Shown: piece after piece, positions 29,777 to 63,870 of the stretch
Numbering within the stretch: the first letter of the stretch is position 1
Layout: each line of letters starts with the position of its first letter
NCBI GenBank assembly: GCA_944389465.1
Contig: CALXML010000001.1
Coordinates: forward strand, 487-64,486
Length of the DNA stretch: 64,000 nt
Direction of reading: 5' to 3'
Source of the DNA: an uncultured Alphaproteobacteria bacterium
Lineage (GTDB): Bacteria; Pseudomonadota; Alphaproteobacteria; Rs-D84
Program-made: the position numbers and the translations under genes
Notes under the pieces: generated by a model
The model's database searches: none
The model's input: the letters and a program-made list of their open reading frames with translations, nothing else
Told to the model about the DNA's origin: nothing

Positions 29777-31057
29777 TTAGTGTTTGCCACCAATTGTTTT
29801 GCGGCCACCCATTAATGGTTGCAATTTTTCAGGAATGTTCACACTGCCGTCCGCGTTTTGGTTGTTTTCCAAAAATGGTACCAGTGCGCGTGGTACGGCA
29901 ATACCGGTATTATTTAATGTTGCACAGAACTTAACCTCGTTCGTGCCGTTTTCACGGTAACGGGTGTTTGTGCGTCGTGCCTGAAATGTGCCAATGGATG
30001 AACAACTGCCGACTTCCTTGTATGCGTTTTCAGATGGGACCCATGCCTCTACATCATTCATTTTTACTTTGTTAAATCCCATATCGCCCGTTGAATTTGC
30101 AATTACGCGGTACGGCAGACCGAAATCAGCCATAACTTCGCACAGGTTGTTCAATAATAATTCATGCATTTCGTCGGACTGTTCTGGTTTACAGAATATG
30201 TATTGTTCAACCTTGTTAAATTGGTGAAAGCGTGCCAGACCACGGGTGTCACGACCGGCGGCACCGGCCTCTTTACGAAAGCATGGTGAAAATCCCGCGT
30301 ATTTAATTGGCAGCGCACTTTCCGGTAAAATTTCACCACTGTGCAGGGAATTTAATATTATTTCCGCCGTGCCGGCCAAACATCTGTCTGTGCCGGTTAA
30401 CATAAACACGTCGTTATTCATAATGGATAAATCAGAACCCATAAAGTGACCGGCATCAAATATAGTTTGTGGTTTTGTGATGGACGGGCATTCAATGAAT
30501 GTAAAGCCGCGGGCGATTAATTTTTGAATAACGTATGTTTCAATGGCTAATTGTAATTCAGCCGCTTCGCCAATCAGGCAATATGTGCGTGTGCCACAAA
30601 TTTGTGCGATTTTTTCAGGTGCCCACCATCCGTTCATATCCAACAAATCCCATTGGGCGCGTGGTGTAAAATCAAATTCACGTGGTGTGCCAACACGGCG
30701 CACCTCTGTATTTGCGCTGTCATCCGGTCCGATTGGGGCGGACGCATCTGGAATTTGTGGAACGCGGTGCAATAGGTCGTTTAATTTTGCTTCCTTGTCC
30801 GCCAGTTCGGCCATATCAGCCGCGATTTCATCACCAATTTGTTTTGAACGTGCAATCAATGGTGCTTTATCAGTGGCGGTTGGAATTTCGCGGGTGATTT
30901 TATTCTTTTCCGCGGTCATATTTTGTGTAACTGTTTTTAATTCGCGCACACGTGCATCCAGTGTCAAGATTTCATCAATATGGTCCTCAAATCCCTTGAC
31001 ACGACAGGCATTTTTTACTGTATCTGGGTTTTCACGAATAAATCTGATGTCCAACAT
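29777..31057 (-). CDS. serS: serine-tRNA ligase
   Basis: MLDIRFIRENPDTVK..., a coiled-coil N-terminal arm, and class II motifs (FRKEAGAAGRDTRGLARFHQF). Confidence 0.95.
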   Translation of the reverse strand: MLDIRFIRENPDTVKNACRVKGFEDHIDEILTLDARVRELKTVTQNMTAEKNKITREIPTATDKAPLIARSKQIGDEIAADMAELADKEAKLNDLLHRVPQIPDASAPIGPDDSANTEVRRVGTPREFDFTPRAQWDLLDMNGWWAPEKIAQICGTRTYCLIGEAAELQLAIETYVIQKLIARGFTFIECPSITKPQTIFDAGHFMGSDLSIMNNDVFMLTGTDRCLAGTAEIILNSLHSGEILPESALPIKYAGFSPCFRKEAGAAGRDTRGLARFHQFNKVEQYIFCKPEQSDEMHELLLNNLCEVMADFGLPYRVIANSTGDMGFNKVKMNDVEAWVPSENAYKEVGSCSSIGTFQARRTNTRYRENGTNEVKFCATLNNTGIAVPRALVPFLENNQNADGSVNIPEKLQPLMGGRKTIGGKH

Positions 31058-31322
31058 AGTTTTGTTTCCTTAAAAATTTATAATTTGTTAATTAAACGGA
31101 TTTTTTACATTTATATTATATTCAGATTAAAATTGCACCCCAAACGGGGATGAAGACAGTGATGAAGATAAAAATATAAATTTCATAATGATTAAATTTT
31201 ATTGCGTTGTGGCTTAAAAATCAACAAATTTTATGTATATTCAAAATTATTTGCGAATTAAAGCCAATTATGTTATTCTGATGCCCGACATAAATCATAA
31301 TAGTAAAGCAGGAGTTATTAAT

Positions 31323-61437: not shown

Positions 61438-61941
61438 ATGTTGATTGGTTTTTCAACGGGTGCATCTGCGACGACGACGACATGCCCAGATTGTTATAAA
61501 TGTGTGAAGTATTCAGGCAGCAGTTGTTTGCAATGTGAATACGATCCCGATTATTGTATGGGAGAGGTTGTCTGTGGCGATGGCAAGGTTTGGGATGCAG
61601 ATGCACTTGAATGTGTATGTGACCCAGCAAAAATATGTTTTGGTACAGTGGACCCAGACACCTGTGAATGTATTGAAGAAGAGGTGGCTTGTGAAGATGG
61701 GCAATATCACAATGGAAAGGTGGGATTATTGGCCCAGTGTTTGGATTGTCCGACGTTGAATGGGTGTCTTCGTGGTCCGCACAGTACTGGCGATGGTGCT
61801 GCTGGTATAACAGATTGTTATTATGGCGTTGATGCCATATGCACAGACAGTGCCGGCAGTTATGTTTTTTCAGAAGATTGCCGTTACGATGATTCTGATT
61901 CTTCTGAAGAAGAGGTTGAAGAAGAGATTGAAATTAATTAA
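61438..61941 (+). CDS. Cys-rich secreted protein, family member C; N-terminal signal-peptide exon currently inverted (OFF)
   Basis: 167-aa ORF with 24 Cys, CLDCPTLNGC motif, C-terminal TDSAGSYVFSEDCRYD and an acidic tail. As assembled it starts MLIGFSTGASA with no n-region. Confidence 0.75.
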   Translation: MLIGFSTGASATTTTCPDCYKCVKYSGSSCLQCEYDPDYCMGEVVCGDGKVWDADALECVCDPAKICFGTVDPDTCECIEEEVACEDGQYHNGKVGLLAQCLDCPTLNGCLRGPHSTGDGAAGITDCYYGVDAICTDSAGSYVFSEDCRYDDSDSSEEEVEEEIEIN

Positions 61942-61951
61942 ATGTGTGTTA

Positions 61952-61980
61952 TTTGACATTTATTTTTATTAGTACTATTA
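61952..61980 (+). promoter_or_regulatory. near-consensus sigma70 promoter upstream of the thrS leader
   Basis: TTGACA (61952-61957), a 17-nt spacer, and TATTAT (61975-61980). Confidence 0.55.
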
Positions 61981-61991
61981 TTAGTACTGTT

Positions 61992-62051
61992 ATGAAAAAA
62001 TATTGTGTTTTCTTTGTCACAACAACTACTACAACCCCCGCGGGGGTGTAA
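61992..62051 (+). CDS. candidate Thr-rich leader peptide upstream of thrS (MKKYCVFFVTTTTTTPAGV)
   Basis: 19-codon ORF with six consecutive Thr codons (ACA ACA ACT ACT ACA ACC, 62019-62036). Its 3' part overlaps the hairpin CCCC-CGCG-GGGG. The ORF ends 85 nt upstream of the thrS ATG. Confidence 0.45.
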   Translation: MKKYCVFFVTTTTTTPAGV

Positions 62052-62136
62052 GATTCTGTTTGCGGTTTTATCCGCACAATGCAATAATTAAACAAATTCA
62101 ATTTTATTAAATTTTAACTGACAAAGGATTTTTATT

Positions 62137-63870
62137 ATGTCTTATCCAATTGAAACGATTCGTCATTCTTTGGCGCATGTTATGGCGGCAGCCGTACAGA
62201 AACTGTATCCAGATGTAAAATTTGCGGGTGGGCCGGCCATTGAAAATGGGTTTTATTATGACTTTGATACCGAACACAGATTTTCCGAGGATGATTTTGC
62301 AAAAATTGAAAAGGAAATGCGTGAATTGATTAAGTCTAATGGACGATTTGAACAGCGTAATGTGTCATTGGACGAAGCCAAGCAAATTTTTGCAAATCAG
62401 CCGTATAAAATGGAATGGTTGAATGAATATGATGCCGCAGGCGAGGCTTTATCTGTTTATACTTTCCGTGATTTTGTTGACCTGTGTCGTGGGCCACACG
62501 TTGAAAGTTCCAAAGATTTACCGCGTGACGCGTTCAAGATTCGCAATGTTGCCGGTGCTTATTGGAAGGGTGACGCAAAAAATAAAATGTTACAGCGCAT
62601 TTATGTTAATGCGTTTGCCAGCAAAGAAGAATTGGATGAATTTTTGAAAATGCAGGCCGAGGCTGCCGCACGTGATAACCGTAAATTGGGCAAGGATATG
62701 GATTTATTCCATTTTGAACCTGATTATGCACCGGGGGCGGTGTTCTGGCATGACAAGGGATATAAATTTTATCGTAAATTAATTGAATATATTCGCCATC
62801 GTCAGGAACGTGCCGGTTATCAGGAAATCTCAACGCCGTCCGTGATGGACCGGTCGCTGTGGGAACGCAGTGGCCATTGGGCTAAATATGGCGAACATAA
62901 TTATTCCGGTAAAACCCAAGATGGTAAAACGTTCTGTGTGAAACCGATGTCTTGTCCGGGGGGGATGTTGGTTTTTGGTCAGGGTATTAAATCATATAAA
63001 GATTTGCCGTTGTATTTGGCTGAATTTGGTAAAGTTAATCGGTACGAGGCCGCCGGTGGTTTGTCTGGCCTGATGCGGGTGCGTGAATTTACACAGGATG
63101 ATGCGCATATTTTCTGTACCGAAGAACAACTGGAAGAAGAGGTTGTAAAAATCTTGCGCTTTATCAAGGATATTTATGCAAAATTTGGATTTGATAAAAT
63201 TTCTATGAAATTGGCCACGCGCAAGGATTCTGAATTTCGTATCGGTTCTGATGAAATTTGGGACAAGGCCGAGGGCGCATTAAAACACGCATTGGATGCA
63301 AATGGCATTGAATATGAAATTGCGCCGGGGGATGCCGCGTTTTATGGGCCGAAAATTGATAACTATCTGAAAGATGCGCTGGGGCATACATGGCAATGTG
63401 GTACGGTTCAATTGGATATGAATTTGCCGGAACGCTTTGATTTGTCATATATTGGTGAAGATGGCGAAAAGCATCGTCCAATTATGCTGCATCGCGCGAT
63501 GTTGGGTTCAATTGAACGCTTTATGGGGATATTGCTGGAATCAACGGGTGGAAATTTGCCGTTGTGGTTATCGCCAGAACCCGTGGTTGTAACACCAATT
63601 TCAGAAAAGTTCCGCGATTATGCGGTTGAAATAGTTGACAGTCTGCGTGACGCGGGTGTGTATGCACGTGCTGATTTGCGTGATGAAAAGGTTAACTATA
63701 AAATCCGCGAATTATCTTTGGCAAAAACACCGATTATTGCGATTGTTGGTGAAAAAGAAATGGAAAATCGCACTGTGACGCTGCGCCGGTTGGGGGTGGA
63801 ACAACAGGAAAATATGCCATTGGATGAATTTATTGCCAATATGCGCAATGCGGTAAAAATACCGGCATAA
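62137..63870 (+). CDS. thrS: threonine-tRNA ligase (no N-terminal TGS domain)
   Basis: Starts at the editing-domain motif IRHSLAHVMAAAV. Class II core (FRDFVDLCRGPHV, RVREFTQDDAHIF, GSIERFMGILLE) and an anticodon-binding domain. Confidence 0.95.
   Translation: MSYPIETIRHSLAHVMAAAVQKLYPDVKFAGGPAIENGFYYDFDTEHRFSEDDFAKIEKEMRELIKSNGRFEQRNVSLDEAKQIFANQPYKMEWLNEYDAAGEALSVYTFRDFVDLCRGPHVESSKDLPRDAFKIRNVAGAYWKGDAKNKMLQRIYVNAFASKEELDEFLKMQAEAAARDNRKLGKDMDLFHFEPDYAPGAVFWHDKGYKFYRKLIEYIRHRQERAGYQEISTPSVMDRSLWERSGHWAKYGEHNYSGKTQDGKTFCVKPMSCPGGMLVFGQGIKSYKDLPLYLAEFGKVNRYEAAGGLSGLMRVREFTQDDAHIFCTEEQLEEEVVKILRFIKDIYAKFGFDKISMKLATRKDSEFRIGSDEIWDKAEGALKHALDANGIEYEIAPGDAAFYGPKIDNYLKDALGHTWQCGTVQLDMNLPERFDLSYIGEDGEKHRPIMLHRAMLGSIERFMGILLESTGGNLPLWLSPEPVVVTPISEKFRDYAVEIVDSLRDAGVYARADLRDEKVNYKIRELSLAKTPIIAIVGEKEMENRTVTLRRLGVEQQENMPLDEFIANMRNAVKIPA

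Follow-up and report, generated by a model that had tools for sequence, protein, structure and literature searches.

In Escherichia coli pheM-pheST, a short open reading frame (ORF) rich in cognate codons controls a synthetase in cis, and a ribosome reads the level of charged tRNA. E. coli thrL (Rfam RF00506) carries a run of Thr codons in its leader peptide, followed by a GC-rich structure. To our knowledge, Alphaproteobacteria have no T-boxes, and little is known about how their synthetase genes are controlled. Here we describe a leaderless mini-gene with six consecutive Thr codons that precedes thrS, the gene for threonyl-tRNA synthetase (ThrRS), in an uncultured alphaproteobacterium. The DNA analyzed is a stretch of 64,000 nucleotides (nt), referred to as the window, which covers positions 487 to 64,486 of contig CALXML010000001.1 (assembly GCA_944389465.1). 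The genome is 954 kb in size, 99% complete and 41.6% G+C; it belongs to a reduced-genome gut alphaproteobacterium (Candidatus Enterousia), and thrS is present in it as a single copy. Sequence comparisons suggest that the leader mini-gene is very probably a ribosome-stalling sensor of charged tRNA-Thr.

By function, pheM-pheST is the closest described system. By gene, the closest is a leaderless thrL annotated upstream of thrS in Streptomyces lividans, with the peptide MKRVRPFLETTPGFVPAR (PMC8079986, Table 4). It has the same target, a leaderless start, a T-T-P sequence and one hairpin without a U-tract, and its termination was described as "unclear" (PMC8079986). The S. lividans leader differs in having two Thr codons, in coming from an actinobacterium, and in having been identified by RNA-seq of a single strain, with neither comparative nor functional work on it. 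A first-pass annotation of the window, made from the sequence alone, had regarded a Thr leader in front of thrS as unusual, a view that is tempered by this actinobacterial annotation. By logic, the leader resembles the mycobacterial leaderless polycysteine short-ORF attenuators (Ms5788A), where mutagenesis demonstrated translational control and the codon tract pairs with the Shine-Dalgarno (SD) sequence of the next gene (bioRxiv 10.1101/834739). The shared elements are a leaderless ORF, a cognate run near its 3' end, and a repressing fold that a stalled ribosome blocks, or in our case would block, with no terminator/antiterminator pair. In E. coli pyrBI, one terminator hairpin is physically blocked by the ribosome translating the leader, but pyrBI senses UTP via RNA polymerase pausing rather than codon runs, and its terminator is canonical. 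The E. coli ThrRS operator and the Firmicutes T-box act on the same gene and the same signal, namely Thr-tRNA charging or the ThrRS level.

The thrS locus of the window contains the following features.

61953 to 61981, forward strand: promoter P1, near-consensus with 11 of 12 matches, made up of TTGACA (61953-61958), a 17-nt spacer and TATTAT (61976-61981).
61992 to 62051, forward strand: leaderless leader ORF of 19 codons encoding MKKYCVFFVTTTTTTPAGV, with ATG at 61992 and stop codon TAA at 62049-62051.
62019 to 62036, forward strand: six consecutive Thr codons, ACA ACA ACT ACT ACA ACC, the final one being the first codon of hairpin 1.
62034 to 62047, forward strand: hairpin 1, A-CCCC, loop CGCG, GGGG-T, from RNA folding.
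62049 to 62060, forward strand: the stop codon followed by an A/U-rich linker (TAAGATTCTGTT), whose length is kept in relatives.
62061 to 62076, forward strand: hairpin 2, TGCGG, loop TTTTAT, CCGCA, in the -35 and spacer region of P2, from RNA folding.
62060 to 62088, forward strand: predicted promoter P2, with a conserved layout of TTGCGG (62060-62065), a 17-nt spacer and AATAAT (62083-62088), and with an extended -10 TG at 62080-62081.
62124 to 62128, forward strand: SD sequence of thrS, AAGGA, read from the sequence.
62137 to 63870, forward strand: thrS, 577 amino acids, with a tRNA_SAD editing domain, a class II core and an anticodon-binding domain, and without the N-terminal TGS domain.

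The sequence and its comparison with relatives directly show the ORF with its frame and cognate codons, the hairpin, the two predicted promoters and also the Ser/serS unit described below. The leader ORF lies 85 nt from thrS on the same strand, and the genome has tRNA-Thr genes for each of the anticodons UGU, GGU and CGU. Most of the parts had been recognized in the first-pass annotation, and all of them are in the sequence: the mini-ORF with its ATG at 61992 and six Thr codons at 62019-62036 upstream of the thrS ATG at 62137, the GC-rich hairpin formed by the last Thr codon and the codons after it (62034-62047), and a second hairpin at 62061-62076, which additionally coincides with P2. The upstream promoter TTGACA-17-TATTAT is present as well, but its coordinates had been given one base off (61953-61981, not 61952-61980).

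When compared with the described systems, the locus resembles each of them only in part. Unlike pheM, which is SD-led and has a terminator/antiterminator pair and a U-tract, the thrS leader is leaderless and has a single invariant hairpin, no alternative pairing that we could find, no canonical U-tract, and a promoter downstream. E. coli thrL differs in controlling biosynthetic genes, in counting Ile codons too, and in its four-region architecture. A permissive Rfam scan of 61700-62400 (E values up to 10) gave no match to RF00506 Thr_leader, the T-box or any other leader family; the only matches were chance ones to snoRNA and Hatchet families, far under the gathering scores, and a known RNA family was rejected on this basis. 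In contrast to Ms5788A, pairing with the SD sequence is not conserved, and the hairpin is a local one located 90 nt from the thrS SD. There is also no tRNA-like operator and no T-box in the thrS leader, where the ribosome is the proposed read-out. The leader therefore would fit the leader-peptide attenuators in a broad sense, as an upstream ORF, cognate codons and the expected codon placement are all found. It lacks the antiterminator of a classical attenuator, a match to the Rfam Thr_leader family and a conserved pairing that would sequester the SD.

The leader is widely conserved before thrS. We read 63 close thrS loci from Enterousia-like genomes, including three from other families of the order, and found the Thr-run mini-ORF with its surrounding unit in all 63, as the first-pass annotation would have predicted. 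The shared unit consists of P1, a gap of 6-10 nt to the ATG, a Phe-rich stretch, the Thr run, and then ACCCC-N4-GGGGU. A strict pattern, ACNACNACCCCN4GGGG, occurs in 255 of the 328 genomes of the order and in 13 of its 30 genera, and a reversed-pattern control over the order's genomes gave almost no matches. The genomes missed by the strict pattern were inspected more loosely, and the leader was then seen in most other genera of the family. Outside the order, matches to the strict pattern stay at control level. One of them, in another alphaproteobacterial order (locus L150 in G350), is a true homologue encoding MSWIVNKTTTRLTTTP, which is SD-led and located ~70 nt upstream of a short thrS; the stop codon falls in the loop of its hairpin, CCCC-UUGA-GGGG, with a U-rich tail immediately after.

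Among relatives, the number of Thr residues varies from 2 to 7, and the run almost always ends in T-T-P on hairpin 1 (once in T-A-P). The last three Thr codons are at most 9 nt from hairpin 1 in nearly all homologues. The stop codon is 2-5 nt past the hairpin 1 stem, or inside the loop in three loci (L026, L027 and L150), and these in-loop stops suggest that the peptide after Pro is dispensable. The peptides of the same three loci end in Pro-stop, where termination is known to be slow. At its N-terminal end, the leader peptide is Phe-rich, hydrophobic and weakly conserved.

The ThrRS of the window is a short form that starts at the editing (N2) domain. Long-form ThrRS with TGS and without a leader is found in more distant alphaproteobacterial relatives (~60% identity), and one genus of the order holds both the short and the long form. 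We considered whether the leader is a relic of lost TGS-domain coding. No direct evidence was found for this, and the long-form thrS genes of other alphaproteobacteria had no leader.

Several observations suggest that the mini-ORF is translated. In relatives, the P1 spacer is 17 nt except in two loci with 16 nt, and the -10 box ends 6-10 nt before the ATG, a constant gap. With such a gap, transcription would begin on the AUG or immediately ahead of it, and the mRNA would be leaderless and need no SD sequence; the lack of an SD and the possibly leaderless mRNA pointed out in the first-pass annotation are explained in this way. Caulobacter and other Alphaproteobacteria are well known to translate leaderless mRNAs. 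Among relatives, the ATG and the last Thr codon are only ever 36, 39, 42 or 45 nt apart, which means that insertions and deletions occur in steps of three. Synonymous variation is seen among the Thr codons (ACA 165, ACT 87, ACC 72, ACG 22), and most lineages have a leaderless start signal, with an SD-led one in L150. This evidence is consistent with a leader ORF that is real and translated. A gene for a Cys-rich secreted protein lies upstream (window 61438-61952) and ends at 61941, 11 nt before the P1 -35 box. In the window there is no terminator between this end and the P1 -35 box, and in many relatives a canonical terminator abuts the P1 -35 box. Transcription reading in from the Cys-rich gene would yield leader RNAs that are not leaderless.

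A serine counterpart of the leader is found in the same genome. A scan of all 954 kb searched for short ORFs (8-35 codons) that start 5-11 nt downstream of a promoter scoring 9 or more of 12 matches. It gave 220 candidates, of which only two had 6 of 7 identical residues: the Thr-run ORF at thrS and a Ser-run ORF at serS. The features of the serS locus are as follows.

31196 to 31224, reverse strand: promoter of the serS leader, with TTGATT (31224-31219), a 17-nt spacer and TAAAAT (31201-31196), and with a 9-nt gap to the ATG.
31127 to 31186, reverse strand: leaderless Ser-run ORF encoding MKFIFLSSSLSSSPFGVQF, with a CCCC-GTTT-GGGG hairpin (31149-31138), from the genome scan and folding.
29777 to 31057, reverse strand: serS, downstream of the Ser leader, 70 nt from the Ser-run ORF.

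A P2-like sequence, TTGGGG-17-TATAAT (31143-31115), overlaps the 3' arm of the hairpin in the serS leader. Besides the one in the window, Ser leaders precede serS in 9 of the 25 loci read in relatives, for example MKNRFVFFSSSSSSPLGE, and the module formed by hairpin 2 and P2 also follows several serS leaders. Our literature searches turned up no earlier description of a Ser leader at serS. That a Thr run at thrS and a Ser run at serS are built alike is the strongest single argument for sensing of the cognate charged tRNA. For proS, a leader with a Pro run was also considered, and the CCN-rich matches there lie within an upstream acyltransferase-like gene; proS has no such leader. The hairpin of these leaders is encoded in their last codons, which would limit the design to amino acids with NCC codons and would fit its use for Thr and Ser only. 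Ser leaders could have derived from Thr leaders through changes of the first codon base.

Downstream of the leader, the layout of P2 (TTGNNN, 16 or 17 nt, TAnAAT) is kept across the genus and in a locus of another family, L028, whose hairpin 2 module has a wholly different stem sequence. An extended -10 TGn is found in 13 of 13 weak AATAAT boxes and in 0 of 36 TATAAT, TAAAAT or TATACT boxes, where the 13 may represent one clade. P2 therefore looks like a genuine sigma-70-type promoter, with the weak boxes compensated by TG. The arms of hairpin 2 covary. Because loop lengths vary, a MAFFT alignment misses the 3' arm, and we tested covariation by comparing the energies of matched and swapped arms (-6.1 versus -3.8 kcal/mol, permutation p = 5e-5). 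There are eight arm types, including GCGG/CCGC, GCGA/UCGC, GCGC/GCGC, GCAC/GUGY and GUGC/GCAC. Such a hairpin within a promoter is not a genome-wide habit, as only 9 loose matches were found in the genome, mostly inside genes. Since hairpin 2 is upstream of the P2 start, it exists only in P1 transcripts, which implies that P1 RNA sometimes passes hairpin 1. Loci without a recognizable P2 (L026, L027, L150 and the serS locus L129) point the same way, as an essential synthetase would there need read-through from P1. In L177 (G301, another genus of the family), the Thr leader is gone, while TTGCGA, a GCGA/UCGC hairpin and TATAAT remain; in L163, the leader and P2 are kept and hairpin 2 is lost. 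The contrast between these two loci indicates that the leader and the hairpin 2 module can decay independently.

These observations bear on two other explanations of the locus. One is that the mini-ORF does not control thrS at all: P2 would be the only working promoter, and the P1 unit would be a small hydrophobic peptide, a trans-acting small RNA or a decaying remnant. P2 is indeed well conserved, P1 and P2 are separated by two hairpins, thrS has been kept without the leader in several genera, and the N-terminal part of the peptide has the hydrophobic and weakly conserved character noted above. Alphaproteobacteria are also known to have trans-acting attenuator RNAs and peptides, such as rnTrpL/peTrpL of Sinorhizobium (PMC6614838, PMC7298713). 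However, the codon run matches the gene exactly in two cases, Thr at thrS and Ser at serS, and the element always directly precedes the synthetase gene and shares its strand. The need for read-through in loci without P2, and the dispensable residues after Pro in L026, L027 and L150, also speak against this explanation, and we regard it as improbable. The other explanation is a protein-binding operator, in which the leader hairpins would mimic tRNA and ThrRS, by binding them, would repress thrS. ThrRS autoregulation is known in E. coli, and two hairpins do precede thrS, but their loops are variable, unlike an anticodon loop, and serS is preceded by the same hairpin 1. The sequence of hairpin 2 changes freely, and the hairpins are ~60-100 nt from the ribosome-binding site of thrS. 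Such an operator seems to us highly improbable, and the least likely of the explanations considered. Sensing of charged tRNA by the translating ribosome is the reading we retain.

We then examined hairpin 1 and searched for the parts of a classical attenuator. Hairpin 1 was the sole helix returned by alifold from 52 leaders, with a mean free energy of -8.0 kcal/mol across homologues, an invariant stem and a variable loop. The 9 nt downstream of it contain 6-8 A/U in 53 of 58 sequences, the linker is U-rich in most relatives, and the distance from hairpin 1 to the TTG of P2 is 10-18 nt, mostly 11-14 nt. In 30 of the 58 relatives, the tail of hairpin 1 passes a loose terminator rule, with the stop codon sitting between the stem and the U-rich stretch. 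When the part covered by a ribosome stalled on the Thr run was removed from the fold, no recurrent alternative helix appeared. A classical antiterminator was rejected on these grounds, as neither alifold nor the stalled-state folds gave one, and neither hairpin 2 nor the sequence downstream offers a conserved partner for the 3' arm GGGGGU.

Based on these results, we propose the following mechanism. The P1 mRNA would start on the AUG or only a few bases away from it, and its 19-codon ORF would be translated as a leaderless message. The last three to four Thr codons, the portion of the run that relatives always retain, would then lie 0-9 nt before a stable ACCCC-N4-GGGGU hairpin, encoded by Thr-Pro-x-Gly codons. 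When charged tRNA-Thr is scarce, the ribosome would wait on these codons, and its footprint, extending ~12 nt past the A site, would keep the 5' arm of hairpin 1 open. When the supply is good, the ribosome would reach the stop codon, 2 nt past hairpin 1 or in its loop, and leave, and the hairpin would close. Closed hairpin 1 with its A/U-rich tail would represent the OFF state, most likely by weakly terminating or pausing transcription and so restricting the amount of P1 RNA that reaches thrS; with hairpin 1 open, the ON state, P1 transcription would get to thrS. The ribosome would be the only antiterminator, with no alternative RNA pairing, and P2, between the leader and thrS, would provide basal expression of the essential gene. 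We infer the stalling, the termination or pausing of RNA polymerase at hairpin 1, and the direction of the response. Hairpin 1 is placed so that a stalled ribosome would alter its fold, an effect deduced from the size of the footprint.

The leader-peptide attenuation of thrS put forward in the first-pass annotation thus stands in one respect and falls in another. The sensing of cognate codons is supported by conservation across the order, the 3-nt indels, the start signals and the serS twin. The architecture of thrL, hisL or pheM that was implied is not borne out, as there is no conserved antiterminator and no canonical U-tract, and hairpin 2 is part of P2. Consistent with that annotation, our terminator scan placed no canonical U-tract after either hairpin, and folding for alternative pairings gave hairpin 1 alone. 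Overall, cognate-codon sensing appears well supported by the comparisons, and the read-out step is what we infer from them. We lean towards the simple occlusion model together with the general sensor claim.

We note that a number of observations weigh against this model. The stem of hairpin 1 is always CCCC/GGGG and never covaries, and its pairing is backed by thermodynamics and context. This invariance is expected if Thr-Pro is kept, because Thr (ACN) and Pro (CCN) codons fix three of the four C residues and pairing fixes the G residues. Hairpin 1 is not a canonical terminator, as the genuine terminators of the genome have a U-tract straight after the stem, and in the window it fails even the loose rule; no terminator-like site was found in 61982-62137. 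The leader has been lost in several genera, which have a plain promoter before thrS. Hairpin 2 covaries and clearly matters, yet the occlusion model assigns no role to it. There is also a kinetic problem: one hairpin cannot separate a stalled ribosome from a transiting one, because both cover it while near RNA polymerase. Discrimination by hairpin 1 needs a waiting RNA polymerase, a pause or a slower read-out.

One way around the kinetic problem is Rho-dependent attenuation of the tnaC type. The Thr run and CCCC (CACAACAACUACUACAACCCCC) would form the core of a Rho loading site that is masked by a stalled ribosome. After normal termination, the site would be exposed, and Rho would catch a polymerase paused at hairpin 2 and the -10-like TATAAT or AATAAT; the kinetic problem would then disappear, and hairpin 2 would have a function. 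The genome encodes Rho (652 bits, over the family cut-off), CACAACAACUACUACAACCCCC is G-free and C-rich, the Ser run is UC-rich, and the spacer from the leader to thrS is G-poor. The absence of a canonical intrinsic terminator, the conserved spacing between hairpin 1 and hairpin 2, and the use of the design only for amino acids with NCN codons (Thr ACN, Ser UCN) would also agree with it. However, the C-rich stretch is only ~22 nt, far under the typical rut length, its CCCC portion is locked within hairpin 1, and the rest of the spacer is A/U-rich, not C-rich. The leader is also kept in loci without hairpin 2 (L026, L027, L150 and L163). We consider Rho-dependent attenuation unlikely, although it is the strongest of the competing explanations.

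A slower read-out on the finished mRNA would escape the kinetic problem as well. In such post-transcriptional attenuation, the state of the leader would determine either how stable the P1-thrS mRNA is or how well translation starts from the thrS SD, a mechanism shown experimentally in Mycobacterium smegmatis (10.1101/834739). In the minimum-free-energy fold of the window, UUCUUUGUCA (62011-62020) pairs with UGACAAAGGA (62121-62130) and covers the thrS SD. This pairing is a perfect 10-bp complementarity of Phe/Val codons of the leader to the SD region. The complementarity is common to the closest relatives (L033, with a similar one in L003), and a similar one occurs in L026. Across the genus, however, leader/SD pairing is not conserved: duplex energies were -7.1 kcal/mol for matched pairs, -6.7 kcal/mol for mismatched pairs and -7.0 kcal/mol for shuffled leaders. 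As these values are indistinguishable, we rejected an anti-SD model. In addition, alifold gave no long-range helix, and the leader is entirely missing from P2 transcripts. Post-transcriptional attenuation thus appears quite improbable, only marginally ahead of an ORF that does not control thrS. The pairing may still add a translational layer at the level of the strain.

Returning to ribosome occlusion of hairpin 1, a broader interpretation is possible and is offered tentatively. The thrS and serS leaders may represent a minimal family of antiterminator-less attenuators for aminoacyl-tRNA synthetases in reduced-genome gut Alphaproteobacteria, forming a class distinct from the trp type. Each member would encode its own hairpin in its last codons, NCC-CCN-NNG-GGG, so far for Thr and Ser, and the unit would be located upstream of P2. 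Hairpin 2 with the -10 box may then serve as a pause module through which Rho or some other slow process could sense where the ribosome is. We regard this broader interpretation as doubtful, though better placed than the competing explanations above.

ThrRS and SerRS are both essential, and they appear to be tuned by the simplest leader-peptide device known to us, which consists of one promoter-proximal leaderless ORF and one 14-nt hairpin, with no alternative fold. The covarying hairpin within a promoter raises the question of how tandem promoters, pausing and translation interact. If our interpretation is true, it would show how little RNA suffices for amino-acid-specific attenuation, and leader-peptide control of synthetases would reach beyond pheST and the actinobacterial annotations. 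The leader would then also represent a compact and portable sensor of tRNA charging.

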